Below, piece after piece: positions 40,166-64,000 of a DNA stretch of 64,000 nucleotides. How positions within the stretch are numbered: the first letter of the stretch is position 1; every line of letters starts with the position of its first letter. Source of the stretch: a virus. Below the pieces are notes generated by a model. It was not told the origin of the DNA and did no database searches. It was given only the letters and a program-made list of their open reading frames with translations. The position numbers were made by a program, and so were the translations under genes. Location of the stretch: positions 7,444-71,443 of the IMG/VR virus record IMGVR_UViG_3300009545_000020, one strand, 5' to 3'.

Positions 40166-40504
40166 AAACAATCCGATACCGCGATTGCCACGTCGCAGAC
40201 AACACCGATCTATATCGCCTGATTGAACAGGGCAAAGTTAAGAAAGCCTTTGAACACTACCAGAAGGTGATGCATGAGTACCACAAACTCCACGGGACGA
40301 CACCTGACTCCGCAGCAGCTCGTGGACGCGGTGAGGAATCGCATCCCCGGACCAGCTTGCACAGCGATGGCAGCAGTGATCGGCCAGGGTGACTGGAACT
40401 GGATCTCGCTCGAAACCGACGTTCTCGAAGGCCGACCAGGCGCATACGAGAAACTGCTTCGCGGATACATGGCATACCTGGAACACCGAATCCTTCGAGG
40501 TTAG
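40162..40504 (+). CDS. Two overlapping small hypothetical ORFs (40162-40392 and 40274-40504)
   Basis: The first has GTGA coupling; the second ends YLEHRILRG, similar to the array tail. Confidence 0.4.
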
Positions 40505-40507
40505 GCC

Positions 40508-40915
40508 ATGGCGACAAAAGCGAAGTGGCAAACCAAGGACGGCCAGCTCCTTAATGTTGCTTTCATGGATTCAGTGCATCTTCTGCACTCGGCGAACATG
40601 GTGATTCGGAACTACGCCAATCAGCCAGTTTACAGAGCCAATTTCGCTGTCTCTTCTTCCGTCTACAAAGAAGCAATAAAGCGCGGATACAAGCCAATCG
40701 ACAAGCAGCCTGGAAGCGCATTTCGGATTACGAATTTCGTATACCGCGAATCTCGCAAACAACTCTGCATGCTTCAAGCATTGCTCGAAGTATCGAGTCA
40801 TAACGCTCAACCTCGTCCCTTTACCCCCGAACAACTCGATGACTATATCGAGCGATCGAAAGATCACCCAGAACTCTTCGCCCGTTATCTCCACTACCTC
40901 ATGACCAAAGGCTGA
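40508..40915 (+). CDS. Hypothetical protein (135 aa)
   Basis: WQTKDGQ...MDSVHL.H..NM motif, common in phage small proteins. Confidence 0.55.
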   Translation: MATKAKWQTKDGQLLNVAFMDSVHLLHSANMVIRNYANQPVYRANFAVSSSVYKEAIKRGYKPIDKQPGSAFRITNFVYRESRKQLCMLQALLEVSSHNAQPRPFTPEQLDDYIERSKDHPELFARYLHYLMTKG

Positions 40916-40920
40916 ATACC

Positions 40921-41760
40921 ATGCTCCAAGCTCGCGCCATGCTCGTCGCTCTGTCCATTTCCCAATGGACTGCTCGCAAACACGACAGGACGGTTTCCGA
41001 CGAAGTCGACCACAACCACGGGGCGAAGGACGCCGGGCGATACAACAAGCTCCTGATCGACAAGGAACATCTCGAACCACTGGCCAAGTTGTCCGGCGAG
41101 ATCCGTACCCACCACTACGCCAAAACGCTCCCGTGGGGCGACAACGGCGAGCGCCTGCTGTCGTCGCAGCTCTTCTTCGATTACACGCGCCAGATGGCGA
41201 CGTACAAGAATCAGTTCGCCGCGCTAGCCGATACCTTTGTCCAAAACTACCCAGCCATGATCCAGACCGCCCGTCAGCGTCTGGGCACGATGTACGAGCC
41301 CAGGGACTATCCGCTCAGCTCGGATATCCGCAACCGATTCTCCATCGCCCTGTCCTTCACGCCGGTCCCGAGCGCCAACGATTTTCGGGTCGACGTGGGC
41401 AACGAGGCGCTCGAAGAGATTAAAGCCTCGATCGAGGCCACGAACAGGCAGCGCGAGCAAGAGGCCATCAAGGACACCTGGCGCCGTGTGCGGGAGGTTA
41501 TCTCGAAGATCCAAGCCCGCACGGCCGACCCGAAGGCCAAGATCTTCGACACCCTGGTCGAGAACGCCGCCGAGCTGGTGGCCACGTTGCCGGGCTTGAA
41601 TATCAACGACGACCCGGAGCTGACGGCGATCCAGAAGGATATCCAGGACCATCTGCTCGTGCGCCCGACGATCCTGCGAAACAACCCCTTCGCTCGCCAG
41701 CGCGTCGCCGACCAGGCGCAATCCATTCTGGACAAATTCTCGTGGGCAACGAGCCAATAA
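40921..41760 (+). CDS. DUF3150-like protein (279 aa)
   Basis: LSISQWTARKHD, TLPWGDNGERLL, LGTMY...DYP and LNINDDP; usual companion of phage MoxR/VWA genes. Confidence 0.7.
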   Translation: MLQARAMLVALSISQWTARKHDRTVSDEVDHNHGAKDAGRYNKLLIDKEHLEPLAKLSGEIRTHHYAKTLPWGDNGERLLSSQLFFDYTRQMATYKNQFAALADTFVQNYPAMIQTARQRLGTMYEPRDYPLSSDIRNRFSIALSFTPVPSANDFRVDVGNEALEEIKASIEATNRQREQEAIKDTWRRVREVISKIQARTADPKAKIFDTLVENAAELVATLPGLNINDDPELTAIQKDIQDHLLVRPTILRNNPFARQRVADQAQSILDKFSWATSQ

Positions 41761-42766
41761 CCTTCGAGTACGACCTGGTACTCGGCGCACTGAGTGAGCT
41801 AATGCTTGAAAACGAGTATTGGTTTAGCAACTACAAGTTATATATCCAATACGACCGCCCTATGCAGGAATGGTGGTTCCGTCGCGCAAAGCTCCAAGCC
41901 GAGAAAGGAGTACCAGCCATGCGAGAACTAGTTGATCGAGTCATCGCACTGAAGATGCAGTCATGACTGCCGAGAAAACTCTCAATCTCTGGCTCGATGT
42001 ATTGCACGGGAGTACATATACGGCACCCACCGCTGATTACGCGTCAACCCAATGGTTCTGGGGCTTAGTAGTAGGGGCAGGCATATTTGAAAAGATCGAA
42101 GAGACCAAGCGCCTTGCAGCTGAAGGCCACCCTATTGCAGCCGAACTAGTCAGCCTCGTGGTCGCGGAGCGTCTGAAATGAATGAAGTCGACTTCTTCAG
42201 GCAAGTGCTTTACCAAGACGGCCTAATAGACGAATTCGATTATCGATGGACAATTGATGTTGCCGACTCCTGGGAACTCCGCCGACATGTCATCGTCAAT
42301 CTCGCGGCCGCAGGCGACGAACGAGCCACTCGAATCCTCAACGCTGTCATCGCAGAGCGGATGAAATGAGCGACGACGCTGAGACTTTCAGGTACACGCT
42401 AATCGCTAGCGAAGTTAGTAACTTGCATTACCAATGGGTTCGCACTCTAGGAGAAACCTGGGAAGCCCGCCGGCAAGCAATACTGAGTCTTGCAGCCATT
42501 GGTGATGAAACAGCAACCTGGATTCTCAACGCTGTCATCGCAGAGCGGATGAGATGAGCATCAGTACAGCCGAACGTGCATTGTGGTGGAAAGTCTGCGA
42601 AGTAAGACGTGACGATTGGTTCTTTGCCGTAGACGATAACAAAGCAATGAACTTCGTCCAACGCATGGACTACCGAATAACCAGAACCAAAGAACTCGCA
42701 GCTCAGGGCGATCCAAAAGCAATCGAACTCCTCAACCGCGTCATCGCAGAAAGAATCCTCACATGA
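41742..42766 (+). CDS. Array A: five coupled small paralogs (41742-41966, 41963-42181, 42178-42369, 42366-42557, 42554-42766)
   Basis: All end in LAAxG(D/H)xxAxxLLxxV(I/V)AER(M/L/I)-like tails; ATGA overlaps. Confidence 0.8.
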
Positions 42767-43887
42767 ACTCTGAAGTCCTCACCAAATTGACCAAGGCGCG
42801 TATCGCTCTGATCTTCGAACAACCTTTCTTCGGTCAGCTCGCCTTGCGCTTGGCGCTGAAGGAGATGAGCCCGGCGCATGAAGCGATGTTCGCCGCTCAC
42901 GGTATGATCCCAACCCTCGCAGTCGACGGTAAGACGATCTACTACTCGCCGAGCTTCATCCAGGGCCTCAGCCACGAACTCACCAAGTCCGCCCTCGCCC
43001 ACGAGATCGGTCATTGCATCTACGACCACACGGGCCGGCGCGGCGCGCGCGAGCCGATGCGCTGGAATTTCGCTGGCGACTACGTCATCAACGACATGCT
43101 CAAGGACGCGAACTTCGAGATCGGCAAGGGCTGGCTCCTCGATGCGCAATACAAGGGCATGTCGAGCGACGAGATCTACAACAGGTTGCCGACGGAAGAA
43201 GATGGACAAAGCCAAGGCGGCGGAGGCTTCGATATCGTCATGGACGCCGAGGCCGGCGAAGCCGAGGTCGAGGCCCTGGAATGGAAGATCGCCGTCAGCC
43301 AGGCCGCCCAGACCGCCAAGGCCGCGGGCAAGCTGCCGGCGAGCCTCGAACGCTTCCTCGAAGAGATGCAGGCGCCGAAGGTCGACTGGCGTGCTCAGCT
43401 CCGCCAGTTCGTCACCCAGCTCTCGAAGAACGACTACACCTGGATGCGGCCGAACCGCCGGTTCCTGAGCGCTGGCTTCTTCATGCCCAGCCTTTTCAGC
43501 GAGAACATGGGCACGATCGCCGTGGCAATCGACACCTCGGGCTCGATCGACGCTAAGACACTCACCGCATTCGGCGCCGAGATCAAGGCGATCAAGGACA
43601 GCGTGAACCCCGAGAAGATCGTCATCATCTACTGCGATGCGCGGGTCAACCACATCGACACGTTCGAGCAGTACGACGAGCTGCACTTTGACATGCACGG
43701 CGGCGGCGGCACCGACTTCCGCCCGCCGTTCGAGTACCTGAAGGAACACGAGATCAACCCGGCGTGCTTCGTGTACCTCACGGACGGCTACGGCCCGTTC
43801 GGCGAGTCGACGACGTTCCCGACGCTGTGGTGCATGACGACGGAAGTGAAAGCGCCGTTCGGCGAGAACATCCGGATCGAGGTGTGA
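42763..43887 (+). CDS. DUF2201-like metallopeptidase plus VWA domain protein (374 aa)
   Basis: HEIGH zincin motif, MIDAS DTSGS, GGGGTDF and YLTDG. Confidence 0.88.
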   Translation: MNSEVLTKLTKARIALIFEQPFFGQLALRLALKEMSPAHEAMFAAHGMIPTLAVDGKTIYYSPSFIQGLSHELTKSALAHEIGHCIYDHTGRRGAREPMRWNFAGDYVINDMLKDANFEIGKGWLLDAQYKGMSSDEIYNRLPTEEDGQSQGGGGFDIVMDAEAGEAEVEALEWKIAVSQAAQTAKAAGKLPASLERFLEEMQAPKVDWRAQLRQFVTQLSKNDYTWMRPNRRFLSAGFFMPSLFSENMGTIAVAIDTSGSIDAKTLTAFGAEIKAIKDSVNPEKIVIIYCDARVNHIDTFEQYDELHFDMHGGGGTDFRPPFEYLKEHEINPACFVYLTDGYGPFGESTTFPTLWCMTTEVKAPFGENIRIEV

Positions 43888-43888
43888 A

Positions 43889-44512
43889 GTGAGCTTCGCT
43901 CGCGAACACTTTGCTGCATACAAAGCGTTGCGGGAAAAGTATTTCCCGTACATGAGCCCGGACTCAGCGCTTTGGCATGTTCGAAACGACATCAACAACG
44001 CAATCATTCGCAAGCTGCTTCCTCCCGAATTCGAGATCCAAGGAATTTATCGAGATGCGAAGTTTGATGTCGAAGATCACACGATCAAAGCTGGTAGCAA
44101 GTCCTTCGACGATCGCGACATTCTCGAAGGATTCGCAATGATCATCGAACCTGGTCGGAATAGCCAAGGTGCAAGCCAACGATGCAGCGAATACCAACTC
44201 CAAAGTGGCAGCTACACCATCCTCAACTATTCGGAAGATACCGCTTACAAGGATCTACGCAAGGAAAAGGTTGGCAAAGCAGACGCACGCCGCCGGGCAA
44301 TAGAGAGTCGTCAAAGAGATGTGGTCTACGTTGAGAACGTTCAACGTGGAAACATTTACGAAGTTGATGTATTTGTTGAATGCGACGACATCGACTTCTG
44401 GGAATGTGAGGTTTTTTCAACCGATAGCGAAGACGAAGCAACCGCTTGGCTCGAAGACACCATAACCAAATGCGCCGCCGAGATCCGAGCAACCGTTGCC
44501 GCCAAGGAATGA
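43889..44512 (+). CDS. Hypothetical protein (207 aa), low GC
   Basis: ORF directly after the VWA gene. Confidence 0.55.
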   Translation: MSFAREHFAAYKALREKYFPYMSPDSALWHVRNDINNAIIRKLLPPEFEIQGIYRDAKFDVEDHTIKAGSKSFDDRDILEGFAMIIEPGRNSQGASQRCSEYQLQSGSYTILNYSEDTAYKDLRKEKVGKADARRRAIESRQRDVVYVENVQRGNIYEVDVFVECDDIDFWECEVFSTDSEDEATAWLEDTITKCAAEIRATVAAKE

Positions 44513-44690
44513 CATGCCCCCCACCCCCAAGTTCATCCTCGTCCCACAGCCCCTTCTGCTGCGTGCCATCCGTGCCCTTCGCTACAAGGCCCAACACGAG
44601 GGAAACGGCTACAAGAACAGCGTGGACTGGGCCGATGCCAATGCGCTGAAGAAGCTGGTCGACGAGGCAAAGGCTTCCCCCGGCGTCTAA
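44496..44690 (+). CDS. Hypothetical protein
   Basis: Small coupled ORF; start uncertain. Confidence 0.45.
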   Translation: MPPRNDMPPTPKFILVPQPLLLRAIRALRYKAQHEGNGYKNSVDWADANALKKLVDEAKASPGV

Positions 44691-44734
44691 GCTCGTAGTA
44701 CGATCTAACCTTCAGCCATTAGAGATCGACCGCC

Positions 44735-45619
44735 ATGCCCATCAATTCCTGGTCTTATAGCTCCCTCGCCGAGTTCGAGAAGTGCGCCTTCCGGGCCTAC
44801 CTGAAGTACGACCAGCGAATCCCCGAGCCCCAGCGCGAGTTGCCCCCAGGCAAGACCGAGCATGCCAACGATCGCGGCACCCGTATCCATACGGCCGCTG
44901 AGATGTTCGTGCAGAGCAAAGGCCCCTTCATCCCTGAGATGAAGAAGTTCGAGGCCGAGTTCATAACCCTGCAGCAGCTCTACAAGCAGGGCAAGGTCTC
45001 ACTCGAAGGCGAATGGGCGGTGACCGACCAGTGGGAGCCCGTAGCTTGGGGAGGGGAATGGAAAGAAGGCTACTTCTTCGGCGAAGAAGCCGACAACGAG
45101 ATCAAGGTCGTCAAAAAGCTGCCGCAATACGGGCGCTTCGGCGATGTCGTCAAGCTCGGCAAGAAGCTCTACGGCTGGATGCCCGCCTGGCACCGATCGA
45201 AGATCGACGCCATGGTGACATACAACGAAGGCACTTCGGCCGTCGTCATCGACTACAAGTCCGGCAAGAAGTTCGGCAACGAGATCAAGCACGGCGAGCA
45301 GGTTCAGCTCTACCAGCTCAACGCCTTCATGCGGTACCCGCATCTCGAAGAGGTCGTCACCGAACTCTGGTACCTCGATGTCGATGACATCACGCGCATG
45401 AAGTTCACGCGGGACCAAGGGCTTCGGTTCAAGCGCTCGTTCGACATACGCGGGAACAAGATGGTCAACGCCACGACCTTCCCGGCCAACCCCAACAAGT
45501 TCAGCTGCCAATACTGCATGTATTCGAACCGCCCCGACGGCGGCACGAGCCAATGCACCGTCGGCGTCGACAAGGCCGGCCGGCGCTGGCCGAGCGGGAT
45601 CGCGGTCGTCGCAGCCTAA
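44735..45619 (+). CDS. PD-(D/E)XK exonuclease (Cas4/RecB-like, 294 aa)
   Basis: WSYSSL..FEKC, RGTRIH, KID...IDYKSGK, QVQLY and CQYC...C. Confidence 0.85.
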   Translation: MPINSWSYSSLAEFEKCAFRAYLKYDQRIPEPQRELPPGKTEHANDRGTRIHTAAEMFVQSKGPFIPEMKKFEAEFITLQQLYKQGKVSLEGEWAVTDQWEPVAWGGEWKEGYFFGEEADNEIKVVKKLPQYGRFGDVVKLGKKLYGWMPAWHRSKIDAMVTYNEGTSAVVIDYKSGKKFGNEIKHGEQVQLYQLNAFMRYPHLEEVVTELWYLDVDDITRMKFTRDQGLRFKRSFDIRGNKMVNATTFPANPNKFSCQYCMYSNRPDGGTSQCTVGVDKAGRRWPSGIAVVAA

Positions 45620-45631
45620 CCCGAGAGAACC

Positions 45632-45928
45632 ATGACACCCTTCACCGACAACCGCGGCAAGAACTGGCTACCAGAGCATTACCGCCTGATCAAAGACCTG
45701 TTCATCGCGGGTACATCTCTGCAGGACATCGCCAGGCGATCCGGCCGCACGCCCGTCGCCGTGGTGTCGAAGCTCAGCGAACTGGGACTGATCACGATCA
45801 AAGGACGTGATTACCACAAGGTTGACCCCGATCCCTGGATGAGCTGGACGATGCTGAAGATCGAGAACGAAGAGTTCGAGGCCAACATCAAGAGCTTCTA
45901 CGCCAAGTCCAAAGAACCGCAGCCATGA
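45632..45928 (+). CDS. Small HTH/Myb-like protein (98 aa)
   Basis: NRGKNW...IARRSGRTPVAVVSKLSELGL. Confidence 0.55.
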   Translation: MTPFTDNRGKNWLPEHYRLIKDLFIAGTSLQDIARRSGRTPVAVVSKLSELGLITIKGRDYHKVDPDPWMSWTMLKIENEEFEANIKSFYAKSKEPQP

Positions 45929-46093
45929 CCGAGACCAAGAAAAAGCGGTTACGAAGCACAACGCGACTTCGTAGAGACGTCAATCGATTGAAGAACAAGT
46001 TCGTGACTTGCAAGATGCTCGGACACGAGAACCTAGCAACACATTGCCTGGACATGCTCAACAGACGGATGTCGCGGCTCGCGAAGGTCGAGC

Positions 46094-46285
46094 ATGGATA
46101 GAGACGAACTCCTCGGGCACATCGCAAGGTGCACAGCCGACCTCGTGAGGATCAAACTCATCGAAGGAGATGAGACCGAAGAATACAAATGGATTCGCTG
46201 GAATCGAACCATATACCAGATGAAACTTAACGAACTTGACCGTCACCCTTCAGTCATCTCTGCCGCCCTCACCTCTAAGCCCTAA
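46094..46285 (+). CDS. Hypothetical protein (63 aa)
   Basis: Small ORF in the plus-strand operon. Confidence 0.45.
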   Translation: MDRDELLGHIARCTADLVRIKLIEGDETEEYKWIRWNRTIYQMKLNELDRHPSVISAALTSKP

Positions 46286-46290
46286 TCAAG

Positions 46291-47751
46291 ATGCTCGCTT
46301 CGATCAAACCCTTCCGGCATCAAGTCCTGTCCATCAAGCACAACGACAAGACGCCGATCGTGTACGACACGAGCGAGCCCGGCACGGGAAAGACATACGT
46401 CCGCATCGCGGCCTACGCGAAGCGCCAGAAGCGCCTCAAGCACAAGCTCCTCGTGCTCTGCACTCGCTCGACGATGCAAAGCGTCTGGGCCGCGGACTTC
46501 AAGAAGTTCGCCCCGCATCTGCGTGTGGTGATCGCTGACGCTGCACACCGCGAAGCTGCATTCGCAACTGATGCCGACGTGTACATCGCGAACCATGACG
46601 CGGTGAAGTGGCTGAGAGCGAAGAAGAAGGCGTTCTTCGCGAATTTCCGCGAACTCGCGGTCGACGAGTGCACAGCCTTCAAGCACCACACGAGCCAGCG
46701 CAGCAAGGCGATCGTGAAGATCCGGAAGCACTTCGAGTACGTGGCCCTGATGACCGGCACGCCGAACCCGAACGGCATCTGCGATGTGTGGCACCAGGTC
46801 AAGATCCTCGACAACGGCGAGCGCCTGGGTACCTCGTACTACGCCTTTCGCAACACGGTCTGTGCACCGACACAGAAGGGCAAGAACGAGAACGCCATCG
46901 AATGGACCGACAAGGAAGGCGCCGAGGAAGCTGTGTTCGGGCTGCTCACCGACATCGTGATCAGCCACAAGCGGGACAAGTGCCTGGATCTGCCCGAGAA
47001 CCACCAGTATTCGGTGCCCTACTTCCTCAGCGAGAAGCAGAAGAAAGCCTACGTCACGCTGCACGAAGACCAGATCATGCTGTTCGGCACCAGCAAGCCG
47101 CTGACCGCCAAGCAGAAGGTCGAGTTCGTCCGGGCCAAGATGCTCGGCACCCCGGCACCCACCGTGAAGATCTCCGCGGTGAATGCTGCTCAGGTGGCCA
47201 ACAAGCTGCTGCAGGTCTCCTCTGGCGCGGTCTACGAATCCGCCGGCAAGTACCACGTGATCGATCAGGCCCGGTACGAGTTCGTCATGGACCTCGCCGA
47301 GGAGAGCCCGCATAGCCTGGTGTTCTTCCTCTGGCAACACCAGCGAGATCTCCTGGAGCTGCAGGCGCAGACCCGCAAGCTGCGCTACTGCATCATGGAC
47401 GGCGAGACCAGCGACCGAGACCGCGCTGCGAACGTCATGGCCTACCAGGCTGGCAAGTTTGACATGATGTTCGCCCACCCGCTGGTCATGGCGCACGGGC
47501 ACACGTTGACCCGAGGCCGCCGGACAATCTGGTCGAGCCCGACATACAACCTGGAGTGGTTCAAACAAGGTTCGCTGCGCCAGAACCGGATTGGCCAGAA
47601 GCACAAGACCGAGAACATCGTCGTTGTCGCTGAGGGCACGATCGAAGAAGCCGTGTACTCCGAGATGCTCGCGAAGGATGCACGCATGACGAACCTTCTC
47701 GATTTATTCTCTTCTCTAACGTCTAATCACGATCTAAGGAAGGCGGCATGA
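46291..47751 (+). CDS. SNF2-family helicase (486 aa)
   Basis: EPGTGKT, VDEC, MTGTP, HGHTL and RQNRIGQ. Confidence 0.88.
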   Translation: MLASIKPFRHQVLSIKHNDKTPIVYDTSEPGTGKTYVRIAAYAKRQKRLKHKLLVLCTRSTMQSVWAADFKKFAPHLRVVIADAAHREAAFATDADVYIANHDAVKWLRAKKKAFFANFRELAVDECTAFKHHTSQRSKAIVKIRKHFEYVALMTGTPNPNGICDVWHQVKILDNGERLGTSYYAFRNTVCAPTQKGKNENAIEWTDKEGAEEAVFGLLTDIVISHKRDKCLDLPENHQYSVPYFLSEKQKKAYVTLHEDQIMLFGTSKPLTAKQKVEFVRAKMLGTPAPTVKISAVNAAQVANKLLQVSSGAVYESAGKYHVIDQARYEFVMDLAEESPHSLVFFLWQHQRDLLELQAQTRKLRYCIMDGETSDRDRAANVMAYQAGKFDMMFAHPLVMAHGHTLTRGRRTIWSSPTYNLEWFKQGSLRQNRIGQKHKTENIVVVAEGTIEEAVYSEMLAKDARMTNLLDLFSSLTSNHDLRKAA

Positions 47752-47897
47752 AGGAATTTATTTCGGCTATCGCGATTGCAGCTTGGATATTCGGTCTTGT
47801 CCTTGCCAAAGGATTCTGGTCGACGCTCATTGCATTAACTATCTTCCCATGGAGCTGGTACCTCGTCGCAGAATATTTGATTAAGAGGTTTTCGTGA
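47748..47897 (+). CDS. Small membrane protein (49 aa)
   Basis: MKEFISAIAIAAWIFGLVLAKGFWST...; coupled at both ends. Confidence 0.55.
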   Translation: MKEFISAIAIAAWIFGLVLAKGFWSTLIALTIFPWSWYLVAEYLIKRFS

Positions 47898-48328
47898 ATC
47901 GAAAGTACCGCGACATGGAGGACCGGCTTTTCTCGAACTCCTTCGCGATGGACTGCGGCTACGAGACTGAGTGCTGGGTGTGGATGGGCGCAAGCGATGG
48001 CAAAGGCGCATACCCGCGGATGTCGGTAGGAATCGACAAGACCAGAAAAGTCAAGAAGGCCAGCGCGCATCGAGTCTCGTACGAAACGTTCATCGGCCCG
48101 ATCCCCGCCGGCTTCGAACTCGATCACAAATGCCAGGTGACTCGGTGCATTCACCCGAATCATCTTCAACCACTACCTCCGCCGGATAACCGGCGACTCG
48201 TTCAAGCAAGGAAGAAGCATGCGAGTGTTCCTAATCTGCGTCACGATCCTCCTCGCCATGCGCATGACGATGGAGTTCGTGCTGATCATGAAGAACTCGA
48301 ACACGAACACGAGCTGCAGCACAGCTGA
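47894..48328 (+). CDS. HNH endonuclease
   Basis: CWVWMG, AHRVSY and LDHKC....CIHPNHL. Confidence 0.85.
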   Translation: MNRKYRDMEDRLFSNSFAMDCGYETECWVWMGASDGKGAYPRMSVGIDKTRKVKKASAHRVSYETFIGPIPAGFELDHKCQVTRCIHPNHLQPLPPPDNRRLVQARKKHASVPNLRHDPPRHAHDDGVRADHEELEHEHELQHS

Positions 48329-48337
48329 TCTGACGAC

Positions 48338-48730
48338 ATGAAATATCTGCTCCACACCGCTCCATTGCCAATCACGGTAATCTGCTACGCGAAGGTCGTG
48401 GCAATGCTCAGTGAACAGCCTTGTACCTACGCGCAGATGGTGGCGGAGATCGGCATGACACGCAGCACGATTGCCAAATTCATCGCAGCGTTGCGCAAGG
48501 AAGACTACTGCTACATCGCAGCATGGACCGCCAATGACAACGGCCGGCGCAACCTTGCGATGTTCCAGATGGGCTCCAAGCAAGACGCGAAACAACCGTC
48601 CTATACCGACGCCGAGAAGAAAGCGCGCTATCGCCGCCGAAACAAGGAACGGATCAAGGAGAAGGCGCGCGAGAAGTATCGACAGAGTACCTACAAGCAA
48701 CTGATGTCGATCGCGGAAGTACGAGCGTGA
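48338..48730 (+). CDS. HTH DNA-binding protein (130 aa)
   Basis: TYAQMVAEIGMTRSTIAKFIAALR. Confidence 0.55.
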   Translation: MKYLLHTAPLPITVICYAKVVAMLSEQPCTYAQMVAEIGMTRSTIAKFIAALRKEDYCYIAAWTANDNGRRNLAMFQMGSKQDAKQPSYTDAEKKARYRRRNKERIKEKAREKYRQSTYKQLMSIAEVRA

Positions 48731-49510
48731 ACCAGACGGAGATCCGCGAACTGGTGCGGTCGATCCTGACCGACGCCGGTTGCAAGTTCACGGTCAGGCA
48801 TGTCGACAGCTATCGGTTCGTCACCATCAGCAATGAGCATCACGAAGTGCTGCGAGGTGCTTCGCGAGATCTACGAGCCAGGGTGATCTTCGCTGATGAA
48901 GCCTACCGAGACACGCTGCCAAAGGTTCACCTTCGCAGTCTCGCGCGGCTACTGAAACTGCTCGACATCGCAGTCGCACGCGATGTCCGCAGAAAGATGT
49001 TGTCATGACCGACTACGAGAAGCTCACCGAACTTGAACGGCTGTACTCGCTGGGCAAAGGCGACTCTATTCCGATTAAGGATAGAACGACCGAATGCTGG
49101 ATCAGAGACTTGGCCCTCCGATACAAGCACTTCAGACTTCGCTGGTCATACAGAAACTACTGCATAGATGTCCACGTCGATCAGTACGGGCTCTGCTGCC
49201 TGATCTCCGCGCTGCAGAGAACGATCAACGAGAGAGTTGCGAAGAAGATTCTGTCATGAAGCTCAACCTTACGCTGTTGCAGAAGAAGTCAGAGTTAAGT
49301 GCGCTGATTTCAACGATCGACAAGCATGTCTACCTGACTGACGTGCAGTGTGAATGGGTCCGCGCATTGGCGCTTCATCACCATTTGTCTCCGGATGTTG
49401 TCTTCTTTGTGCATGGGATAGGACGAGCTTCAACTCATTGCCTCGGCCAACTCCTCGATAAAGTCGACAACGAAATCAATGAGCAAGTAGCAAGAAAGAT
49501 GCTCTCATAA
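48727..49510 (+). CDS. Array B: three coupled small ORFs (48727-49008, 49005-49259, 49256-49510)
   Basis: Tails DVRRKMLS, INERVAKKILS and INEQVARKMLS; the last two also share W(I/V)RxLAL. Confidence 0.75.
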
Positions 49511-51564
49511 TGGGCTGGTCATCTGCAATCAAGAAGGTTGAGCAAGCTCCCTTCCTCCGCCCTTCGTTCGAGAAGCATCGAGTCGATTGGGATCGCCTAG
49601 TCTCGGTTGACTTCGAGACGTACTTCGACGACGCCTACACGCTCAAGAAGCTGAGCACATCGGAGTACGTTCGCGACAAGCAGTTCTCAGCGCACATGGC
49701 CTACGTGAAGATCGGCAAGCGCAAGGCGCGGATCATCCCCGCCAAGATGCTCAAGACCTATCTGAAGGCTATCGATTGGTCGACGCACTCGCTCCTCGCT
49801 CACCACAACCAGTTCGACGGCTTCATCCTGTCGACGCACTTCGGCATCAAGCCGAAGTTCAACTACTGCACGCTCAGCATGGCGCGCGGGCTGCACAGCA
49901 ACGAGATCGGCGCTGGCCTCGACGAGGTCTCGCAGTTCTACGGTGGAGGCGGCAAGACCGAAGGCGTCATCGAGTTGATGAGAGGCGTGAAGGACCTCAC
50001 CACCGTCCCCGGCCTCTACGACAAGGCGGCCCACTACTGCATGAACGACGGCGAGGAGATGTACCGCGTCTTCAAGCTGATGATCGACGACATGCCGGCC
50101 GACGAGATCGAGCTGATCCATCGCACGTGCGTGATGTTCAACGAGCCGGTGCTGAAGCTAGACAGGGAAAGAGCCCTACAGGCACTCGCCCAGGAACTGC
50201 AGGACAAAGAGGATCTTCTCTTTTCCATTGCTGGTACACCGGCCCAGGTCAAGCGCCTCATCGCCGACGCTGAGCCCTCCAAGGCCCTGCTCAAGAAGAA
50301 CCCGAACGCCACGCCCAAGGATGCCGTGTTCGAGGCGGCCCGCAAGAAGCTCCGCAGCAGCGAGCAGTTCGCCGATCTCCTGCGCGCTGAGGGCATCGAG
50401 CCGCCACGGAAGATCTCACCAGCCTGGAAGAAGCTGCCCAAAGCCGAGCGCACGGACGACAAGAAGTATAGCTACGCCTTCGCCCAGACCGACCTGAGCT
50501 TCAAACGCCTCCTCGAACACCCCAGGAAGCGCGTGCGCCAGCTCGTGGAGGCTCGATTCGCGGTGATGAGCAACACGACAGAGACGCGCGCCGGCCGCAT
50601 GCTGAAGAGCGGGGAGCGCGGAGCATCCCTGCCGATCTACTACCGCTACGCCGCGGCGCACACACTGCGCTTCGGCGGCGGCGACAAGCGGAACTACCAG
50701 AATCTCGAACGCGGTGGCGAGCTGCGTAAGTCGATCCTCGCGCCGAAGGGCTTCCTCATCGCCGTCGGTGACTCGGGCCAAATCGAGGTACGGGTCACCG
50801 GGTACATGGCTGGCCAGGACGATCTGCTCGAAGACTTCCGCCTGGCCGACCAGGGCCTCGATCGCGACGTGTACTGCAAGTTCGGCGATGTGATCTATGG
50901 CCGCGAGATCAACAAGGTCGACGAGGACGAACGCTTCGTCAGCAAGGTCGGAGTGCTTTCGCTCGGGTACGGTGCGGGCCACCATCGGTTTCAATCGACC
51001 CTCGCGCTCGGCCAGATGGGGCCGCCGGTGTTCATCGACCTGGAGCTGGCGCAGAAGGTCGTCAATGCCTACCGCCGCAAGAACTGGAAGATCGTTCAGT
51101 GGTGGGGCAAGTGCGAGCAGATCCTCGAAGACATGGCGACCGGCCGCACAGGGACCCACAAGTGCATCAGCTGGGAGAAGGAGAAGATCTGGCTCCCGAA
51201 CGGCATGTGCATGAAGTTCCCGAACCTGCGCTGGAAGAAGAAAGACTCGGATGACGAGGACTCGCGCGACGGCTGGGTCTACACCCGCAAGGGCAACGAC
51301 ATCAAGATCTACGGCGCAATGCTCTGCGAGAACATCAGCCAGGCCCTCGCCCGGATCATCGTCACGACGCAGTTGCTCGACGTTGCCCGCCTCGGCTGGC
51401 GAGTCGTGATGACAACGCACGATGAAATCGCCCTCATCGCTCGGATCGCGAAGGCCAAGAAGGCGTACGACGAACTAATGATGAAGATGAAGATCGCCCC
51501 GCACTGGGCGCCGGACATTCCATTGAACTGCGACGGGAAGCTGGAGCCGTACTATGCAAAGTGA
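49510..51564 (+). CDS. polA: Family A DNA polymerase with 3'-5' exonuclease (684 aa)
   Basis: DFET, HHNQFD, YCMND, NYQNL, GDSGQIE, K...LSLGYG and THDE. Confidence 0.92.
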   Translation: MGWSSAIKKVEQAPFLRPSFEKHRVDWDRLVSVDFETYFDDAYTLKKLSTSEYVRDKQFSAHMAYVKIGKRKARIIPAKMLKTYLKAIDWSTHSLLAHHNQFDGFILSTHFGIKPKFNYCTLSMARGLHSNEIGAGLDEVSQFYGGGGKTEGVIELMRGVKDLTTVPGLYDKAAHYCMNDGEEMYRVFKLMIDDMPADEIELIHRTCVMFNEPVLKLDRERALQALAQELQDKEDLLFSIAGTPAQVKRLIADAEPSKALLKKNPNATPKDAVFEAARKKLRSSEQFADLLRAEGIEPPRKISPAWKKLPKAERTDDKKYSYAFAQTDLSFKRLLEHPRKRVRQLVEARFAVMSNTTETRAGRMLKSGERGASLPIYYRYAAAHTLRFGGGDKRNYQNLERGGELRKSILAPKGFLIAVGDSGQIEVRVTGYMAGQDDLLEDFRLADQGLDRDVYCKFGDVIYGREINKVDEDERFVSKVGVLSLGYGAGHHRFQSTLALGQMGPPVFIDLELAQKVVNAYRRKNWKIVQWWGKCEQILEDMATGRTGTHKCISWEKEKIWLPNGMCMKFPNLRWKKKDSDDEDSRDGWVYTRKGNDIKIYGAMLCENISQALARIIVTTQLLDVARLGWRVVMTTHDEIALIARIAKAKKAYDELMMKMKIAPHWAPDIPLNCDGKLEPYYAK

Positions 51565-53011
51565 TGAGCTGCCGGATCACCCGGCGAGGAAGTTGCCGGA
51601 GTTCCATTCACTGCGAGCGATCCGCTACGGGCACGATGGACCTGCTTTTTCGGTTGGTGCAAAAGCCGACTGTCCTGATGGGTATAGGGCTCGTTTTGGG
51701 AACTGGCTTCCCACTGCCCAGGAAGCGCTCGACGTGTTCCTTGCCGAGCACATCGAGAAGAAGTTGCTGGCATGAAGTACATCAGCAACGAAGTTCCGAA
51801 TCACCCTGCAAGAAAGCTCCCGCAGTTTCATTGCCTACTTCATCAACCCTGTCTAGCTGGAAACTTCCGAGTCAGTGTAGTCCGATCAATACCCTTCGAA
51901 CTGCATTGGCACCATACCGCGACAGAAGCACTGGATGAGTTCTTCGCGGCGTGCCTCGCTGAGAAGATGCTGCGATGAACTGTAAAGAACTCCCTGACCA
52001 CCCTGCGCGGCCACTCATGCGCACTAAGAACGTGTGTCTTCATGTGGACAAGACAGTCGTAAAGGCACCCTACGAAATCTTCGATTACGTAGGTCAGCGA
52101 GTGTTCTATGGAAACACTGCAAAAGAAGTTCTCGATGCGTTCTACAACAGCCACATTGAAAGAATGATGCTGCGATGATCTGCAATGAACTTCCTGACCA
52201 TCCGGCTAGAAAGATACCCGTGTTCAATCGACTAGAACTCAACAATTCTAGTACGACACTAGGCCCCAGATACTGCGTCATTCGGTCTAGCTACACTGAT
52301 TCCCGAATAGCGACTAGCGAAACCTGGAGTTACACGGCTGAGGAAGCACTCAATTGCTGCTTTCGAGATTACTTGAGCTGGAAGATGCTGCGATGAACTG
52401 CAAAGAACTCCCTGACCATCCGGCACGTCGTCTGAAGAACTTCCAAGAGATTGAAACAGCAGTGGGGTACGGCGACGGGGTAGATTTTTATCGGGTCTGG
52501 GGCCTAGATTCCTACTTCTGTGAGGCTGCAACCGCGCAAGAAGCACTCGATACCTTCTACAACGAACACATCGCGAAGAAGATGCTGTGATGAATTGTGA
52601 TGACCAACACCCCGATCACCCAGCACGGCAACTGCTCGGCTTCGGAGGGGTGTACAAATCCACCGCTCCAGGAACTCAAGACGAGCCGTTCTATATCTGG
52701 TCGACAAGATCGAATGGGGTGTTCTGGGGTGCGACACCAAAGGAAGCACTCGACGAGTTCTACAACGATTACATAGCGCAGAAGATGTTGGCATGAAGCG
52801 CGATGACTTACCCAATCACCCTGCGAGGATGGCCAACACTTTCGGTTCCCTCGTCTACCTCCCATTGACGAACCCAGAAGCACCGCGTTTCTTCATTTCG
52901 TTCGTTACTGACCCCAGTAGATACATCTCATCCGGCTTTTGGTCCTACACCGCCGAGGAAGCACTCGATGCCTTCTACCAAGACTACCTCGAACGAAAAC
53001 TCCTCGGATGA
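51554..53011 (+). CDS. Array C: seven coupled paralogs (51554-51775, 51772-51978, 51975-52178, 52175-52396, 52393-52590, 52587-52796, 52793-53011)
   Basis: All carry N-terminal P(D/N)HPAR and C-terminal T(A/P)xE(A/V)L(D/N)xF...(K/M)(M/L)L; ATGA overlaps. Confidence 0.9.
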
Positions 53012-53776
53012 GATCGTCGGAATTCATCCGGTGATCGAGCATCCTCAGTTCAGGTCGTTGATCAACATGGACGGGCATTTCCATGTGAGATTGAAGACCG
53101 GGGTCAATGACAAGTTCTACAGTCTCACCGCCAAAGGCGCGCTCGATCTCGCATGGAACGAACTCATTGCAAGGAAGATGATCGATGACTGATACCGAGA
53201 TTCTCGACTACCTCGACAAAGAAGCTATCTCAGGTCGCAATCCGCGCGACGTGATCATCGGCGATGTTCAATTTGTTGTCGGTATCAATCGCAAGACGAC
53301 ATTTCGAGAAGCGGTAATCGGCGGAATCGCCAAGGCCAACGAACTAAAGGTCGATCGAGTCAGAAAGAAGATACTGTCATGAACAAGGTCGAAAAAGAAG
53401 TACGTGCACACCCGTACTTCCAGTCGATCAAGAAACCAGATTCGACTGGATGCGTCTTCGTCGTGTATTGGAGAGATCCGTCTGACCTCGACCACAACAA
53501 AAAGCCGACGTTGAAAGCAGCTTGGAGTTACGACCGCAGTGCTGCTTTCGAAGAGGCTCAGCAGCAGATCCTGACTGCAATGGTGATGAGATGAGTGATG
53601 CCGAGAAGGCAGTCCGGGCGCATCCGTGGTTCAGGCGACTTGGAGAGAGCGATGGTCGGTACTTCGTGCTCTACAAAGACGCTGACTCTTTCCCGGCGAT
53701 CGTGTGGCACGCAGACAAAGACATAGCGTTTCAGATGGCTCTCGAAAACATCCTCAGACATCAACTCCGCCTATGA
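52968..53776 (+). CDS. Four further small ORFs (about 52968-53192, 53185-53382, 53379-53594, 53591-53776); diverged array members
   Basis: HP(Q/Y/W)F motif in three; tails TAKGALDLAWNELIARKMI and RVRKKILS. Confidence 0.65.
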
Positions 53777-54252
53777 CTCTTGCCCTTCATCCCCGAGTCC
53801 TGCCGACGTTCACCTCGTGGATCGTCTCACGCGGTGCTCAAGTCCTGGCTACGACGAACGAGTACGAGATGCTGCGGTTCAAGACCGACACGGGAACTGG
53901 CGTCGTGTACCGCAATAAGCACTTTCGTCTAAAGCTCGTCGGCGAAGCTCCCGTCGCCTTCGAAGCGTTCCGCAAGGGCCTGCCCTGGCGTGCGACGCCG
54001 GCTGTGCCCCGCGTACGACGCTCGGCAGACGAACAAACCTTGCGCCTACGCGACGGCGATCTGTGCTTCTTCTGCCAGAAGGATCTCGGTGACGACGCCA
54101 CGGTCGAGCACCTGGTTGCTCGAACCCACAGCGGACCGAATCACATCAGCAACAAGGTTCTGGCGCACAAGATCTGCAACGCCGACGTGGGCCACATGAG
54201 CGCGATGGAAAAGATCCGCATCCATACCCAGGCCCTATTGTCTAAGCTCTAA
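53773..54252 (+). CDS. HNH endonuclease domain protein (159 aa)
   Basis: RDGDLCFFC...TVEHL...N..LAH..CN. Confidence 0.8.
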   Translation: MTLALHPRVLPTFTSWIVSRGAQVLATTNEYEMLRFKTDTGTGVVYRNKHFRLKLVGEAPVAFEAFRKGLPWRATPAVPRVRRSADEQTLRLRDGDLCFFCQKDLGDDATVEHLVARTHSGPNHISNKVLAHKICNADVGHMSAMEKIRIHTQALLSKL

Positions 54253-54333
54253 GTTAGATGTTAGGATGTCATCCAACGAACCATGGGTGACCCGTACCAC
54301 GCCGATCTCGGCAAAACCACCCAAGGAAAGCAC

Positions 54334-54759
54334 ATGACCGTTGCCTCACCCACCAAAACCGCGGCCAAAAAGGCCGCCAAGGGCGCCACCGTCGGCTCGA
54401 TGATCGATGAGATGTGGCTGCTGCGCGAGCAGAAGCGCGCCCTCGAATCCGAGGTCAAGGTGATCGAGAAGAACATCGCCGCCCTGCAGGAACAACTCCT
54501 CGGCAAGATGGACGCCGAAGGCATCAAGGCCTCCACCGGCCGCGCCGCGAGTGCTTCGGTCACCGAGGTCATCACGGCGAACGTCGAGGACTGGGATGCG
54601 TTCTGGGCCTACATCGCCAAGAACAAGTACTTCCACCTCGTGCAGCGCCGCGCCAGCGACCCCGGCGCGCGCGAGCTGTGGGAGCAGGGCAAGAAGATCC
54701 CCGGCGTCGTGCCGTTCAAGAAGACCAACCTCAACCTCCGTTCGCTTTCCGCCGCCTGA
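54334..54759 (+). CDS. Conserved phage replication/recombination accessory protein (141 aa)
   Basis: Coiled coil followed by VEDWDAFWAYI...LVQRR...IPGV; AAGGA RBS. Confidence 0.65.
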   Translation: MTVASPTKTAAKKAAKGATVGSMIDEMWLLREQKRALESEVKVIEKNIAALQEQLLGKMDAEGIKASTGRAASASVTEVITANVEDWDAFWAYIAKNKYFHLVQRRASDPGARELWEQGKKIPGVVPFKKTNLNLRSLSAA

Positions 54760-60157: not shown

Positions 60158-60483
60158 AGATCCGTCCGAACGTCCTGGCGCACGTCAACACGATCATGTT
60201 CTTGATGAGTGGACAGCATTCGACGGAAGATCTTTGCAAGCTAACTGGCTTGGCTCTAAGCACGATGCGTGAGTTCATCGCGCTGCTTCATGCGAAGAAG
60301 CTGATCCACGTCGCACGCCGCGGACGCTACGGTCAAGGCGGTTGGAACAAAAAGTTCTATACCTGGGGCGCCGGCGAGGACGTGATGACATCGCCGCCGG
60401 CCGCAGTCCGTCGGGCAAAGATAGAAGCGAATTCAAACCTCGCGCGCAGTCGTGAGATCAAACAACTGGAGATGGCGGAATGA
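60154..60483 (+). CDS. HTH DNA-binding protein (109 aa), similar in type to 48338-48730
   Basis: STEDLCKLTGLALSTMREFIALLH. Confidence 0.55.
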   Translation: MKIRPNVLAHVNTIMFLMSGQHSTEDLCKLTGLALSTMREFIALLHAKKLIHVARRGRYGQGGWNKKFYTWGAGEDVMTSPPAAVRRAKIEANSNLARSREIKQLEMAE

Positions 60484-60866
60484 GTGGTTCAAGCACTAAG
60501 CACCTCGGCATGTTCGGCGTTGGAATTGTAGGAAACCCGAGCGGCGGCGGTGTCATTGCCGGTGGAAGCGGGGGCGTAGGGATTTCGGCCAAAGACGAAG
60601 AGCGATACCTCCGTCAGAAGGAGTTGTACGGTCTTCATGAGAAGCGCCGTACTGCTGTAAAGAAGTTCTGGGTCGCTCTGTGGGTGCTGGTCGGTCTTCT
60701 CACTCTCTCTGCGACGATCACTGGGTACTACTACTGCGGCCCGATTGTGGCTGGCGCCATCGCAATCACCATCGCCATTCTCGTTCTCGGCTACACAGCG
60801 TTCGATGTGTACAAAGCTCAGCGCGCCATCAATGTCGCCGAGGTCGCCAACAAACTGCTCTCGTAA
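60480..60866 (+). CDS. Two-TM membrane protein (128 aa)
   Basis: Two hydrophobic helices; tail EVANKLLS. Confidence 0.6.
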   Translation: MSGSSTKHLGMFGVGIVGNPSGGGVIAGGSGGVGISAKDEERYLRQKELYGLHEKRRTAVKKFWVALWVLVGLLTLSATITGYYYCGPIVAGAIAITIAILVLGYTAFDVYKAQRAINVAEVANKLLS

Positions 60867-62372: not shown

Positions 62373-62701
62373 CCGACGAACTCGCTCCCCGCTTCCTCAC
62401 CACTGAGGAAGCAGCGAAGCTCCTCAGCATTCACCCCGTCACGCTCGCCGCGAAGGCGAAAGCTGGCGAGATCCCCGCTGCCAAGCCCGGCAAGCGCTGG
62501 GTTTTCATCGAAGCTGACCTGATCACGTACCTTCGTTCGCAATACGGAGGCAATCACAAACCGCCATGTCCCTCTACAAGCAAAAAGGCAGCGAAATCTG
62601 GTGGACGCTCGTCTACCACAACGGGCGGGTACGTCGGTCGACTGGAACAACTGATCGCGCAGAAGCGCAGCGGTTCGAGAACAAGCTCAAGGTCGAGCTA
62701 G
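62369..62701 (+). CDS. xis: Excisionase-like HTH protein
   Basis: FLTTEEAAKLLSIHPVTL...GEIPAAKPGKRW; directly upstream of and overlapping the integrase. Confidence 0.8.
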   Translation: MTDELAPRFLTTEEAAKLLSIHPVTLAAKAKAGEIPAAKPGKRWVFIEADLITYLRSQYGGNHKPPCPSTSKKAAKSGGRSSTTTGGYVGRLEQLIAQKRSGSRTSSRSS

Positions 62702-63770: not shown

Positions 63771-63984
63771 CTATGGCTGGCAACTATGGCTAAACGACCC
63801 GGTCTAAGCCTTTCTAAGGCTTTCTAATGCTCCATCTGTTAGTGGTCCCTAACCCCGGAACCCCTGCAGATGGTAGGCGCGAATGGACTCGAACCATCGA
63901 CCCCCACCATGTCAAGGTTCAAGACATCCGCTGCAAGCCAATGAATCCGGGGCTTCCAACCAACTATGGCTGTTTCACTATGGC
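63771..63984. mobile_element. attP site: core is the 3' half of tRNA-Val(GAC) (63871-63918, minus strand), flanked by arm-type repeats
   Basis: The minus strand reads ACCTTGACATGGTGGGGGTCGATGGTTCGAGTCCATTCGCGCCTACCA; CTATGGC pairs at 63771/63784 and 63964/63978. Confidence 0.88.
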
Positions 63985-64000
63985 CGTTAGATTTTAGAGC

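Follow-up and report, generated by a model that had tools for sequence, protein, structure and literature searches.

A set of small genes scattered through the early region of a temperate phage encodes proteins that end in a shared C-terminal tail, and this tail is specific to the array small genes and selected at the protein level. We read it, with a probability of roughly 40%, as a shared recognition peptide (a docking site or a degron) for a putative partner.

Small-gene arrays between core early genes

The window, the whole stretch of 64,000 nt that was analysed, makes up most of a 71.4-kb temperate-phage contig of soil origin. It contains 20 small genes, organised as three tandem arrays (A, B and C) and one single gene (F1), while a fourth array with the same tail (G1-G3) lies outside the window at contig bases 649-1294, giving 23 array small genes of 58-128 aa (Table 1). 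The earlier note had described about 17 small variable proteins with one tail, in three arrays plus 60480-60866. These loci are all present and the fourth array adds to them; in the window the tail, exact or slightly altered, is found on 18 of the 20 proteins, the exceptions being E1 and E2, and all 13 tails quoted in that note were found at the genes named. Its description of the arrays as lower in GC than their flanks also held, GC being 0.51-0.54 at 42-43 kb and at 52-54 kb and about 0.58-0.64 in the surroundings, and GC3 was 0.52-0.71 in array genes but mostly 0.75-0.93 in core genes. The small array genes are stop/start-overlapping cistrons of long operons: they sit in early/replication-gene operons, and 19 of the 23 share their final 4 or 1 nt with the start of the following gene. 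The arrays were rightly placed between core genes, as relatives without arrays have those core genes directly adjoining at the insertion sites. Both KPP25 and L010 have the helicase gene directly upstream of PolA with no array, and the VWA-peptidase orthologue of L010 directly follows the upstream core gene, with no array A. Small genes specific to this lineage have come to occupy several of the spaces between the phage's core early genes. Pfam bore out the AAA and HExxH-peptidase/VWA identities proposed from the sequence, while at E ≤ 0.001 it gave no DUF3150 call for the product of 40921-41760.

Table 1. Array small genes of the window and the core genes beside them
Feature	Position	Strand	Length (aa)	Tail	Remarks
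A1	41742..41966	+	74	variant	First of array A; GTG start, 19-nt overlap with upstream gene; A5 paralogue over last 22 residues; ATGA overlap with A2
A2	41963..42181	+	72	variant, one residue shorter	A3-A5 paralogue; ATGA overlap
A3	42178..42369	+	63		45% identical to A4, full length; last ~29 nt identical to those of A4
A4	42366..42557	+	63		A3 paralogue; exact unit absent from run X3 contig
A5	42554..42766	+	70	strict	Last of array A; ATGA overlaps start of VWA-peptidase gene
Core gene flanking array A	42763..43887	+			Metallopeptidase DUF2201_N and VWA-like domain; Pfam E 3e-45 and 2e-25
B1	48727..49008	+	93	strict	First of array B; last ~22 residues common with B3
B2	49005..49259	+	84	strict	Tail matches C5, D1 and F1 across families
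B3	49256..49510	+	84	strict	Last of array B; TAATG overlap with PolA start
Family-A DNA polymerase (PolA)	49510..51564	+			Core gene separating array B from array C; 38% identity with the KPP25 polymerase
C1	51554..51775	+	73	strict	First of array C
C2	51772..51978	+	68	strict	Paralogue within C1-C7
C3	51975..52178	+	67	variant	C paralogue
C4	52175..52396	+	73	strict	C paralogue
C5	52393..52590	+	65	strict, no residue after Leu	C paralogue
C6	52590..52796	+	68	strict	Alternative GTG start 52587; outside orthologue P0004
C7	52793..53011	+	72	strict	C paralogue
C8	52968..53192	+		variant, one residue longer	Divergent C member; weak similarity to C1-C7 and E2; start uncertain (sole in-frame ATG overlaps C7 by 44 nt; no start codon at junction)
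D1	53185..53382	+	65	strict	Singleton family inside array C; other families match tail only
E1	53379..53594	+	71	degenerate, fails tail pattern	E2 paralogue, E 3e-8
E2	53591..53776	+	61	none	Weak link to C8; exact unit absent from run X3 contig
F1	60480..60866	+	128	strict	Hydrophobic (possibly membrane); no overlapping downstream gene

Tandem duplication was the main route by which the arrays grew. C1-C8 are paralogous over their full length, with identities of 29-43%, and A1-A5, B1-B3 and E1-E2 form further paralogue sets. The "unrelated bodies" of the earlier note therefore hold between families, where profile comparisons found no body similarity between A, B and C, but not inside the arrays. 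Apart from one distant relative, no homologues of the array families were identified outside the phage lineage, so that the families are orphans. Because most members are in-place tandem duplicates and the families lack outside homologues bar that relative, "unrelated bodies" and a "library of cassettes" were overstatements. A related array is carried by L028, whose PolA is 48% identical: three tandem genes of 72-73 aa (family H) lie directly after the VWA-peptidase orthologue, and their tails are related to the tail of our arrays, vary synonymously and contain no purine run. Family H matched family G with an hhalign probability of 50% and an E of 1.6e-4 over 44 columns.

A C-terminal tail specific to the array genes

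The tail was defined strictly as [KR]-[MIL]-[LI]-x(0-1)-stop. It was found in 15 of the 23 array genes and in none of the 77 other called genes (Fisher p = 2e-12). Six further array genes end in close variants, and in 21 of the 23 the motif ends 0-2 residues ahead of the stop; among the 681 six-frame ORFs of the genome, 17 carry the strict tail, 15 of which are array genes. The consensus is a predicted helix end of 7-10 residues, roughly a hydrophobic residue, A/T/E, x, K/R, M/I/L, L and one small residue before the stop, and no fewer than five families unrelated in sequence share it (A, B, C with E, D and G), perhaps F as well. The A and L028 families carry a shifted variant with K/R where the other families have L, indicating that the "one tail" is in truth a motif family. 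C8, E1 and E2 display a stepwise loss of the tail.

When families A, B, C, G and H were pooled, 15 of 45 columns were invariant in the last nine residues compared with 28 of 341 elsewhere (Fisher p = 1.5e-5). Comparing the profiles of A, B, C and G with one another gave alignments confined to the last 7-18 columns, which in every case ran end to end (P 0.006-0.09). Besides the tail, G and C have an N-terminal E-L-P-D motif in common, and their middles do not align. In the AF2 model of C1 (pLDDT 79), three strands are followed by a predicted helix (residues 55-72) that ends in the tail, with a mean pLDDT of 73 over residues 71-73, and a low-confidence, unreliable model of B1 likewise has strands and then a long C-terminal helix. 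When family C was compared with solved dsRBDs (alpha-beta-beta-beta-alpha), the best VIA Z was 5.8 (rmsd 2.6 over 63 residues), where the noise of the tool lies at 7-8, and the best Foldseek E was 0.18.

The codons of the tail vary about as usage predicts. Between families, same-residue codon pairs were identical in 211 of 447 cases, with 225 expected from core-gene usage or 157 from array-body usage, and up to nine different codons occur at the hydrophobic tail positions. G3 and F1, which have no overlapping downstream gene, retain K-hydrophobic-L-S with AGC and TCG as Ser codons, not TCA; in F1 the TCG codon is accompanied by a TAA stop 24 nt ahead of the next gene, and the F1 tail may be a chance match. 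Codon choice close to the usage expectation, together with the differing Ser codons of G3 and F1, shows that selection acts on the protein; the earlier note had named synonymous variation as support for a protein signal. As judged from the codons, selection retains the residues of the tail and not its DNA, with a weak purine-rich overlay.

Translation, recombination and common descent as rival explanations

The DNA of the stop/start junctions is itself shared, as had been noticed: with up to two mismatches allowed, the window has 12 matches to AAGATGNTGNCATGA where 1.01 would be expected (none of 100 shuffles reached 12), and 11 of the 12 matches are at array junctions. The tail might be the upstream-frame reading of a purine-rich ribosome-binding region, spacer and ATGA overlap. 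The K/R-K codons of the tail occupy positions -14 to -8 before the next ATG, which is the Shine-Dalgarno place of the next gene, so that they probably also serve as a weak initiation region; the overlap forces the last codon to end in A; 5 of the 6 Arg codons in the tail column are AGA or AGG, against an AGR share among Arg codons of 5% in core genes and 25% in array bodies; and identical-codon pairs exceed the array-body expectation. However, the genome has 20 other called genes with a 4- or 1-nt overlap between their stop and the following start, and all of them lack the tail; among distinct coupled (start/stop-overlapping) small ORFs it occurs in 1 of 547 in 83 related loci compared with 11 of 96 in this genome. 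A ribosome-binding by-product of ATGA coupling, by which the earlier note had proposed that its idea could fall, was thus not found. Other coupled genes use GGAG-type elements that encode other residues, whereas the purine run of the arrays stands at the proper SD distance without GG, and anti-SD pairing is weaker at array genes (mean -3.2 versus -4.7 kcal/mol in other genes, p = 0.013). Moreover, no tail precedes the first gene of each array, the last gene retains it even without a coupled downstream gene, and codons vary freely at the hydrophobic positions. The purine run is also lacking in the tails of L028. As the sole cause, translation is already largely refuted, and we consider it very improbable. 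Alternatively, junction DNA could provide short homology for duplicating, deleting or swapping cassettes, with the tail as its translated shadow. Close relatives do differ by whole-gene units cut at junctions: in run X3, an independent soil run with a closer strain, whole genes are absent, cut exactly at start/stop junctions. One X3 contig (joint 42365->42554) lacks exactly A4, the two junctions sharing about 29 identical bases, and another (53590->53773) lacks exactly E2; the best-conserved DNA of array C is a 47-nt stretch over the tail, ATGA and the start of the next gene, 91% identical between two junctions. Nevertheless, the E2 joint shares only 4 bases, unit-precise X3 gaps hit tail-less genes too (47752->47899, 48341->48721 and 45603->46078), and no recurring inverted repeat or attC-like structure was identified at the junctions (seven inverted pairs were found, none recurring there). 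The sole integrase, a phage-type tyrosine integrase at 62566-63594, is about 9 kb distant, next to the contig-end repeat. As none of the families has an outside source, there is no sign of cassette import. Between families the tail-coding DNA is no more conserved than amino acids and codon usage require, and the tail is therefore not primarily a DNA site. From the earlier proposal of a recombination element, variation between strains by whole-gene units cut at junctions is supported and a primary DNA site is not, and we regard this origin of the tail as improbable.

Residual homology is a more serious rival, possible though doubtful in our judgement: all families might descend from one ancestral small gene, their bodies having diverged past recognition, with the last helix turn kept by structure and dual-coding codons and with no shared partner. 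The families are without exception orphans confined to the lineage and alike in size, duplication is clearly how the arrays grow, the C1 model and the low-confidence B1 model have the same order of strands and long C-terminal helix, and the E-L-P-D motif and tail common to G and C flank unalignable middles. The gradient of tail loss in C8, E1 and E2 fits as well, and G and the L028 family show that the tail is inheritable over long distances. On the other hand, the dissimilar bodies of A, B and C in profile comparisons speak against a single origin, as does the Atlas model of B3, which resembles small helix-turn-helix folds more than the C fold, although this is a lead below the tool's bar; and G3 and F1 keep the tail with no gene overlapping downstream. 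In L028, moreover, dual coding does not explain why tails free of a purine run are conserved. The earlier note had favoured a hub, in which the tail docks the small proteins on a phage MoxR-type AAA/VWA-metallopeptidase machine. Array A is translationally coupled to the VWA-peptidase gene, and the L028 array directly follows the orthologous gene, but arrays B, C and G and gene F1 are located elsewhere, and L010 has the AAA and VWA-peptidase genes yet neither array nor tail. MIDAS sites take acidic ligands, whereas the tail is basic. What stood of that model is a real, gene-specific tail that is selected at the protein level and fits a shared recognition helix in general; nothing ties it to this machine or to a named hub, and we consider docking there very improbable.

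The tail as a putative recognition peptide

Sequence comparisons argue for a recognition peptide in that the tail is specific to the array genes and is the best-kept part of the proteins, the families align at the tail only, selection acts at the protein level, and a related tail is present in L028 despite its distance. Several observations weigh on the other side. Degrons are usually free, disordered ends, whereas the tail of C1 is modelled as the end of an 18-residue helix. C6 and P0004, its only outside orthologue, are identical at 54 of 62 aligned residues, and BLASTP stops before the last two residues; read by eye, 3 of the last 5 residues differ, including the conserved Leu, against 5 differences in the middle 56. 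The shifted variant of the A and L028 families and the possible chance match of F1 also count here. Finally, all families are orphans of one lineage, for which a single diverged superfamily is possible.

As a recognition peptide, the tail would give all array accessory proteins one shared fate. They might all dock on a single partner, or be removed at a set time by an unfoldase or protease that reads basic-then-hydrophobic C-termini, as ClpX does with the MuA-type tag, while the variable bodies would do individual jobs, probably in host takeover or counter-defence. The K/R-K codons probably double as a weak purine-rich initiation region, which may help to freeze that part of the tail. In a bolder and tentative form, the peptide could be an address tag that routes a fast-evolving, phage-made library of host-takeover or counter-defence proteins to one machine (a host ClpX-type unfoldase, the AAA/VWA-peptidase pair of the phage, or, for injection, the procapsid). 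It would then match the T4 capsid targeting sequence (CTS), but at the C-terminus and in early operons, and would have lasted long enough to be retained in L028 at 48% PolA identity. Each new member would carry the tag from the outset, since the arrays enlarge through duplication of units at tail-bearing junctions.

The CTS stands at the N-terminus and is cleaved off by the prohead protease. Like the array tail, it is a short terminal peptide that is all that diverse, fast-evolving small phage proteins share, and it serves one destination; the array peptide stands instead at the extreme C-terminus, and the array genes lie in early/replication operons rather than with head genes. The T-even internal proteins are described as highly diverse defence proteins in which only the CTS is conserved (PMC3012670). 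The MuA C-motif-2 tag read by ClpX has, at its C-terminal end, a run of basic residues and then two that are small or hydrophobic (PMC12723719). The array tail is similar in its extreme C-terminal position and in its basic residues followed by two small or hydrophobic ones (strictly in 15 of 23 genes), and differs in being predicted helical, in a conserved hydrophobic residue seven from the end and in an often final Ser. ATGA-coupled genes with a ribosome-binding site inside the upstream ORF resemble the arrays in their overlaps and in purine-rich codons at SD distance, but coupled genes in general, here and in the related loci, have no common tail. Accessory hot spots and tandem paralogue arrays likewise show insertions at core boundaries, presence or absence of units, low GC3 and no homologues. 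To our knowledge, such hot spots have not been described with one C-terminal motif common to unrelated families, and a literature search for this combination found nothing relevant. Integron cassettes, too, are small ORFs in a row that lack promoters and are read through from upstream, each with a recurring element at its 3' end; unlike them, the arrays have no recurring inverted repeat, the integrase is of the phage tyrosine type, and the members are in-place paralogues.

Small orphan early genes abound in phage genomes and their functions are very hard to find singly. The natural variants at this locus show gene sets growing and shrinking by whole units at overlapping junctions. If the tail is the last trace of common descent, dual-coding junctions can preserve homology that is otherwise erased. 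If one tail means a single partner or fate, one pull-down or degradation assay would open some twenty proteins, and the tail could find use as a portable tag.

Genome setting and arrays of small genes

The window covers bases 7444-71443 of a single contig of 71,443 bp. The minus strand of the contig encodes a P22-like portal, a capsid protein and a terminase, and the plus strand carries a long early/replication block with an AAA ATPase, a metallopeptidase/VWA protein (VWA-peptidase), a PD-(D/E)XK nuclease, a SNF2 helicase, a family-A polymerase and two HNH endonucleases. A tyrosine integrase is encoded at window 62566-63594, and beside it a 103-nt exact direct repeat, present near both contig ends (window 63898-64000; contig bases 95-197), looks like the attachment-site repeats of a prophage. 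The source is therefore a temperate phage or prophage. The translation just before the start copy of the repeat resembles a tRNA fragment, and ARAGORN, run on the first 7.5 kb, detected no tRNA gene. The head-gene block also encodes, upstream of the capsid gene, a 512-aa GDSL-lipase-like protein (21441-22979, minus strand; Pfam E 3e-10; PHROG 'lipase'). Among named phages, Pseudomonas phage KPP25 was the nearest, although its polymerase was just 38% identical; the best uncultured relatives reached 48-49%. Megablast of window 41000-54000 against phages gave no match; near-identical DNA was found in rhizosphere and soil metagenome runs.

All small genes and C-terminal tails quoted in the earlier note were present, their lower GC was borne out by both GC and GC3, and a further array with the same tail was found outside the window.

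Small genes carried in arrays or singly
Genes	Position	Strand	Product size	Remark
A1-A5	window 41742-42766			
B1-B3	window 48727-49510			
C1-C8	window 51554-53192			
D1	window 53185-53382			
E1-E2	window 53379-53776			
F1	window 60480-60866			
G1-G3	contig bases 649-1294 (locus L027), outside window	+	71-73 aa	further (fourth) array, same tail

The bodies of these proteins had been described as unrelated, which held between families but failed within arrays, where the genes are paralogues. Full-length alignments of C1-C7 gave 29-43% identity and showed an N-terminal motif, P-x-H-P-A-R, that is invariant among them. A3 and A4 were 45% identical, the C-terminal ~25 residues were common to the A genes and the C-terminal ~20 to the B genes, and E1 and E2 were paralogues with a weak link to C8. 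Array G carried an N-terminal E-L-P-D motif like that of family C. Between families, profile-profile comparison aligned nothing beyond the last 7-18 columns, in every case end to end and with low probability (P of 0.007 for C-B, 0.006 for B-G, 0.015 for C-G, 0.06 for C-A and 0.09 for A-B). The small genes thus form five or six families, most of which grew where they now lie, with the tail as their sole common part. C8 (52968-53192) has no start codon at the C7 junction, its sole in-frame ATG lying 44 nt inside C7; translation may begin at this ATG or be poor, or the gene may be in decay.

Searches of 10 small proteins each against Pfam and PHROGs gave nothing usable, the sole rows being a weak match of F1 to MscS_TM and a single PHROG match with E 0.04. 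The family C profile, run against 1.84 billion representatives and a 5.8-billion index, recovered only proteins of this phage and one C6 orthologue (P0004), apart from seven long-protein matches that appear spurious; family A found only proteins of this phage, and family G, searched together with the three-gene family of the related locus L028, found only the proteins of these two sources. The families are orphans. The 40921-41760 product, previously named DUF3150, had neither a Pfam nor a PHROG match at E <= 0.001; L010, a locus of another uncultured relative, has a 319-aa gene of similar size at the same place upstream of the VWA-peptidase gene. Within 40500-54500 on the plus strand, no promoter-like site and two terminator-like sites, both weak, were detected.

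A common C-terminal motif selected at the protein level

We defined the strict tail as K/R followed by M/I/L and L/I, with no more than one further residue ahead of the stop. This pattern ended 15 of 23 array genes but none of the other 77 called genes (Fisher p = 2e-12); close variants occurred in six further genes (A1-A4, C3 and C8), and E1 and E2 had neither. Among all six-frame ORFs of the contig (n = 681), 17 matched, 15 of them array genes, and in two sets of related loci the matches (14/4,361 and 19/3,958 six-frame ORFs) were scattered and mostly in wrong frames. A scoring matrix made from the tails of this genome, which scores its own tails by construction, gave best scores of 11.6, 9.0 and 8.1 over 7,374 ORFs of related loci; the 11.6 match lies inside a polymerase gene and the 8.1 match is an L028 array gene. 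The tail was among the best-conserved parts of each family, with 15/45 invariant columns in the last nine positions vs 28/341 elsewhere.

The earlier note had proposed that synonymous variation in the tail would support a protein signal, and this is what we found. Same-residue codon pairs between families were identical in 211 of 447 cases, where 225 are expected from core-gene usage and 157 from array-body usage, so that codons vary about as usage predicts. Hydrophobic tail positions used many different codons, and the final Ser was encoded by TCA wherever the ATGA overlap requires A at the third position, by AGC in G3 and by TCG in F1. This codon pattern is the signature of selection on residues, and sequence-unrelated families do carry a common, protein-selected C-terminal motif. 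A weak purine-rich overlay at the DNA level is also apparent: Arg before Lys was encoded by AGA or AGG in 5 of 6 cases, though these codons are rare here, and the K/R-K codons fall at -14 to -8 relative to the next ATG. The DNA consensus noted earlier for stop/start junctions recurred, with 12 occurrences vs 1.0 expected, 11 of them at array junctions.

In the C1 model (pLDDT 79, moderate confidence), three strands are accompanied by a C-terminal helix of 18 residues, the end of which is the tail. Foldseek with this model against PDB and BFVD returned nothing at E <= 0.001, and the best match of a wide VIA search (Z 5.8), a dsRBD-like arrangement, lay under the noise level of the tool. An Atlas model of B3 resembles small helix-turn-helix proteins below the bar of the tool, a lead only, and the B1 model (pLDDT 50) was unusable.

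Insertion at core-gene junctions and turnover between strains

In KPP25 and L010 (49% polymerase identity) the helicase gene directly adjoins the polymerase gene, and the VWA-peptidase gene of L010 is abutted by the gene upstream of it. The arrays are therefore insertions at core-gene junctions. These paralogue-rich arrays are real. L028 (48% polymerase identity) carries three tandem 72-73-aa paralogues directly after the VWA-peptidase gene (L028 881-1573, plus strand), with a related tail (L, x, I, T, D/Q, R, F/L, K/R, S) that ends in TCATGA, varies synonymously, has no purine run and resembles the A-family variant. This family matched family G in hhalign (probability 50%, E 1.6e-4, 44 columns). 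The tail is therefore old and heritable. A larger ORF at L028 1685-2518 has an internal stretch that resembles the L028 array tail. P0004 was identical to C6 at 54 of 62 positions by BLASTP, in an alignment that ends before the last two residues; read from the sequences, three of the last five residues differ, Leu included, which counts against strong constraint on the tail.

Identity to the window was mostly 90-99% in contigs of the metagenome run X3, which come from an independent soil study. In one contig 42365 is joined to 42554, so that exactly A4 is missing, and another joins 53590 to 53773, so that exactly E2 is missing; the joints share ~29 identical bases for the A3/A4 junctions and four for E2. 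(A joint of 53211 to 53406 was left out, having just 26 letters on one side.) X3 also lacked tail-less genes, with joins across 47752-47899, 48341-48721 and 45603-46078; the genes concerned (47748-47897, 48338-48730 and 45632-46101) comprise a small hydrophobic ORF, a gene for an ArsR-type HTH protein and two further small genes. Turnover is thus unit-wise, although the comparison of contigs rather than reads gives no frequencies. X2 and X4 gave short pieces only, those listed being identical or near-identical (0-1 other letters).

The arrays are therefore not fixed between close strains, contrary to the fixed identical arrays that the earlier note had named among the grounds for refuting its idea. 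Gene units are gained and lost at start/stop junctions, sometimes via junction homology, and close strains differ by gene units throughout the early region, including outside the tailed arrays. One HNH endonuclease gene (47894-48328) lies ~400 nt upstream of array B, with the ArsR-type HTH gene in between, and the second (53773-54252) directly follows array C; as nucleases of the homing type next to variable regions, they could promote the turnover of genes at these sites. Adjoining array G, a 186-aa ORF (contig bases ~1331-1891, L027, plus strand) has a P-E-P motif, a hydrophobic stretch and an Arg-rich end, which we take to resemble a PEP-CTERM sorting signal. A real signal of this kind would hint that the host has an exosortase.

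Readings of the tail

If the tail were a recombination element, junctions with ~29 identical bases on either side of the A4 gap would fit, but the four common bases at the E2 joint and the absence of tail-less genes in X3 do not, and we consider this unlikely. Still less likely is a by-product of ribosome binding sites in overlapping genes, which the earlier note had named as a ground for refuting its idea and which failed here. Of the other called genes in this genome with a 4- or 1-nt overlap between their stop and the following start, the tail ended 0 of 20, these having GGAG-type elements that encode different residues. In 83 related loci, where chains of at least four overlapping small genes are common and their tails diverse, it ended 1 of 547 distinct coupled small ORFs, vs 11 of 96 in this genome. 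Pairing with a generic anti-SD motif, which may not be the host's, was weaker in array genes (-3.2 vs -4.7 kcal/mol in other genes, p = 0.013). The first gene of each array has no tail upstream of it, and the last gene keeps its tail even where no gene overlaps downstream (G3, F1); therefore, the tail belongs to the gene it ends. On the same two observations we rejected the idea that the tail is a translated shadow of a mobile initiation region of the downstream gene.

The main rival, which we regard as possible, makes all these genes members of one family that has diverged except for the tail, with structure and dual coding keeping this remnant unchanged. The least probable of the readings considered makes the phage AAA/VWA-peptidase machine the hub for the tail; complex prediction of VWA-peptidase with A5 gave a score of 0.00 and 'no answer', which weighs neither way. 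The remaining probability belongs to readings not yet conceived. Among the papers listed in a literature search on tandemly arranged small paralogues of phages that have a conserved C-terminus, none was relevant, and we make no claim of absence from print.

We tentatively favour, at a probability of about 0.4, a recognition peptide that these proteins have in common. The tail resembles the MuA-type ClpX tag, which consists of a basic run followed by two small or hydrophobic residues at the extreme end (PMC12723719). The same logic is seen in the T-even internal proteins, which are diverse apart from a common targeting peptide (PMC3012670). On this reading, the C-terminal peptide common to sequence-unrelated small proteins of this phage would be recognised as a docking site or degron.
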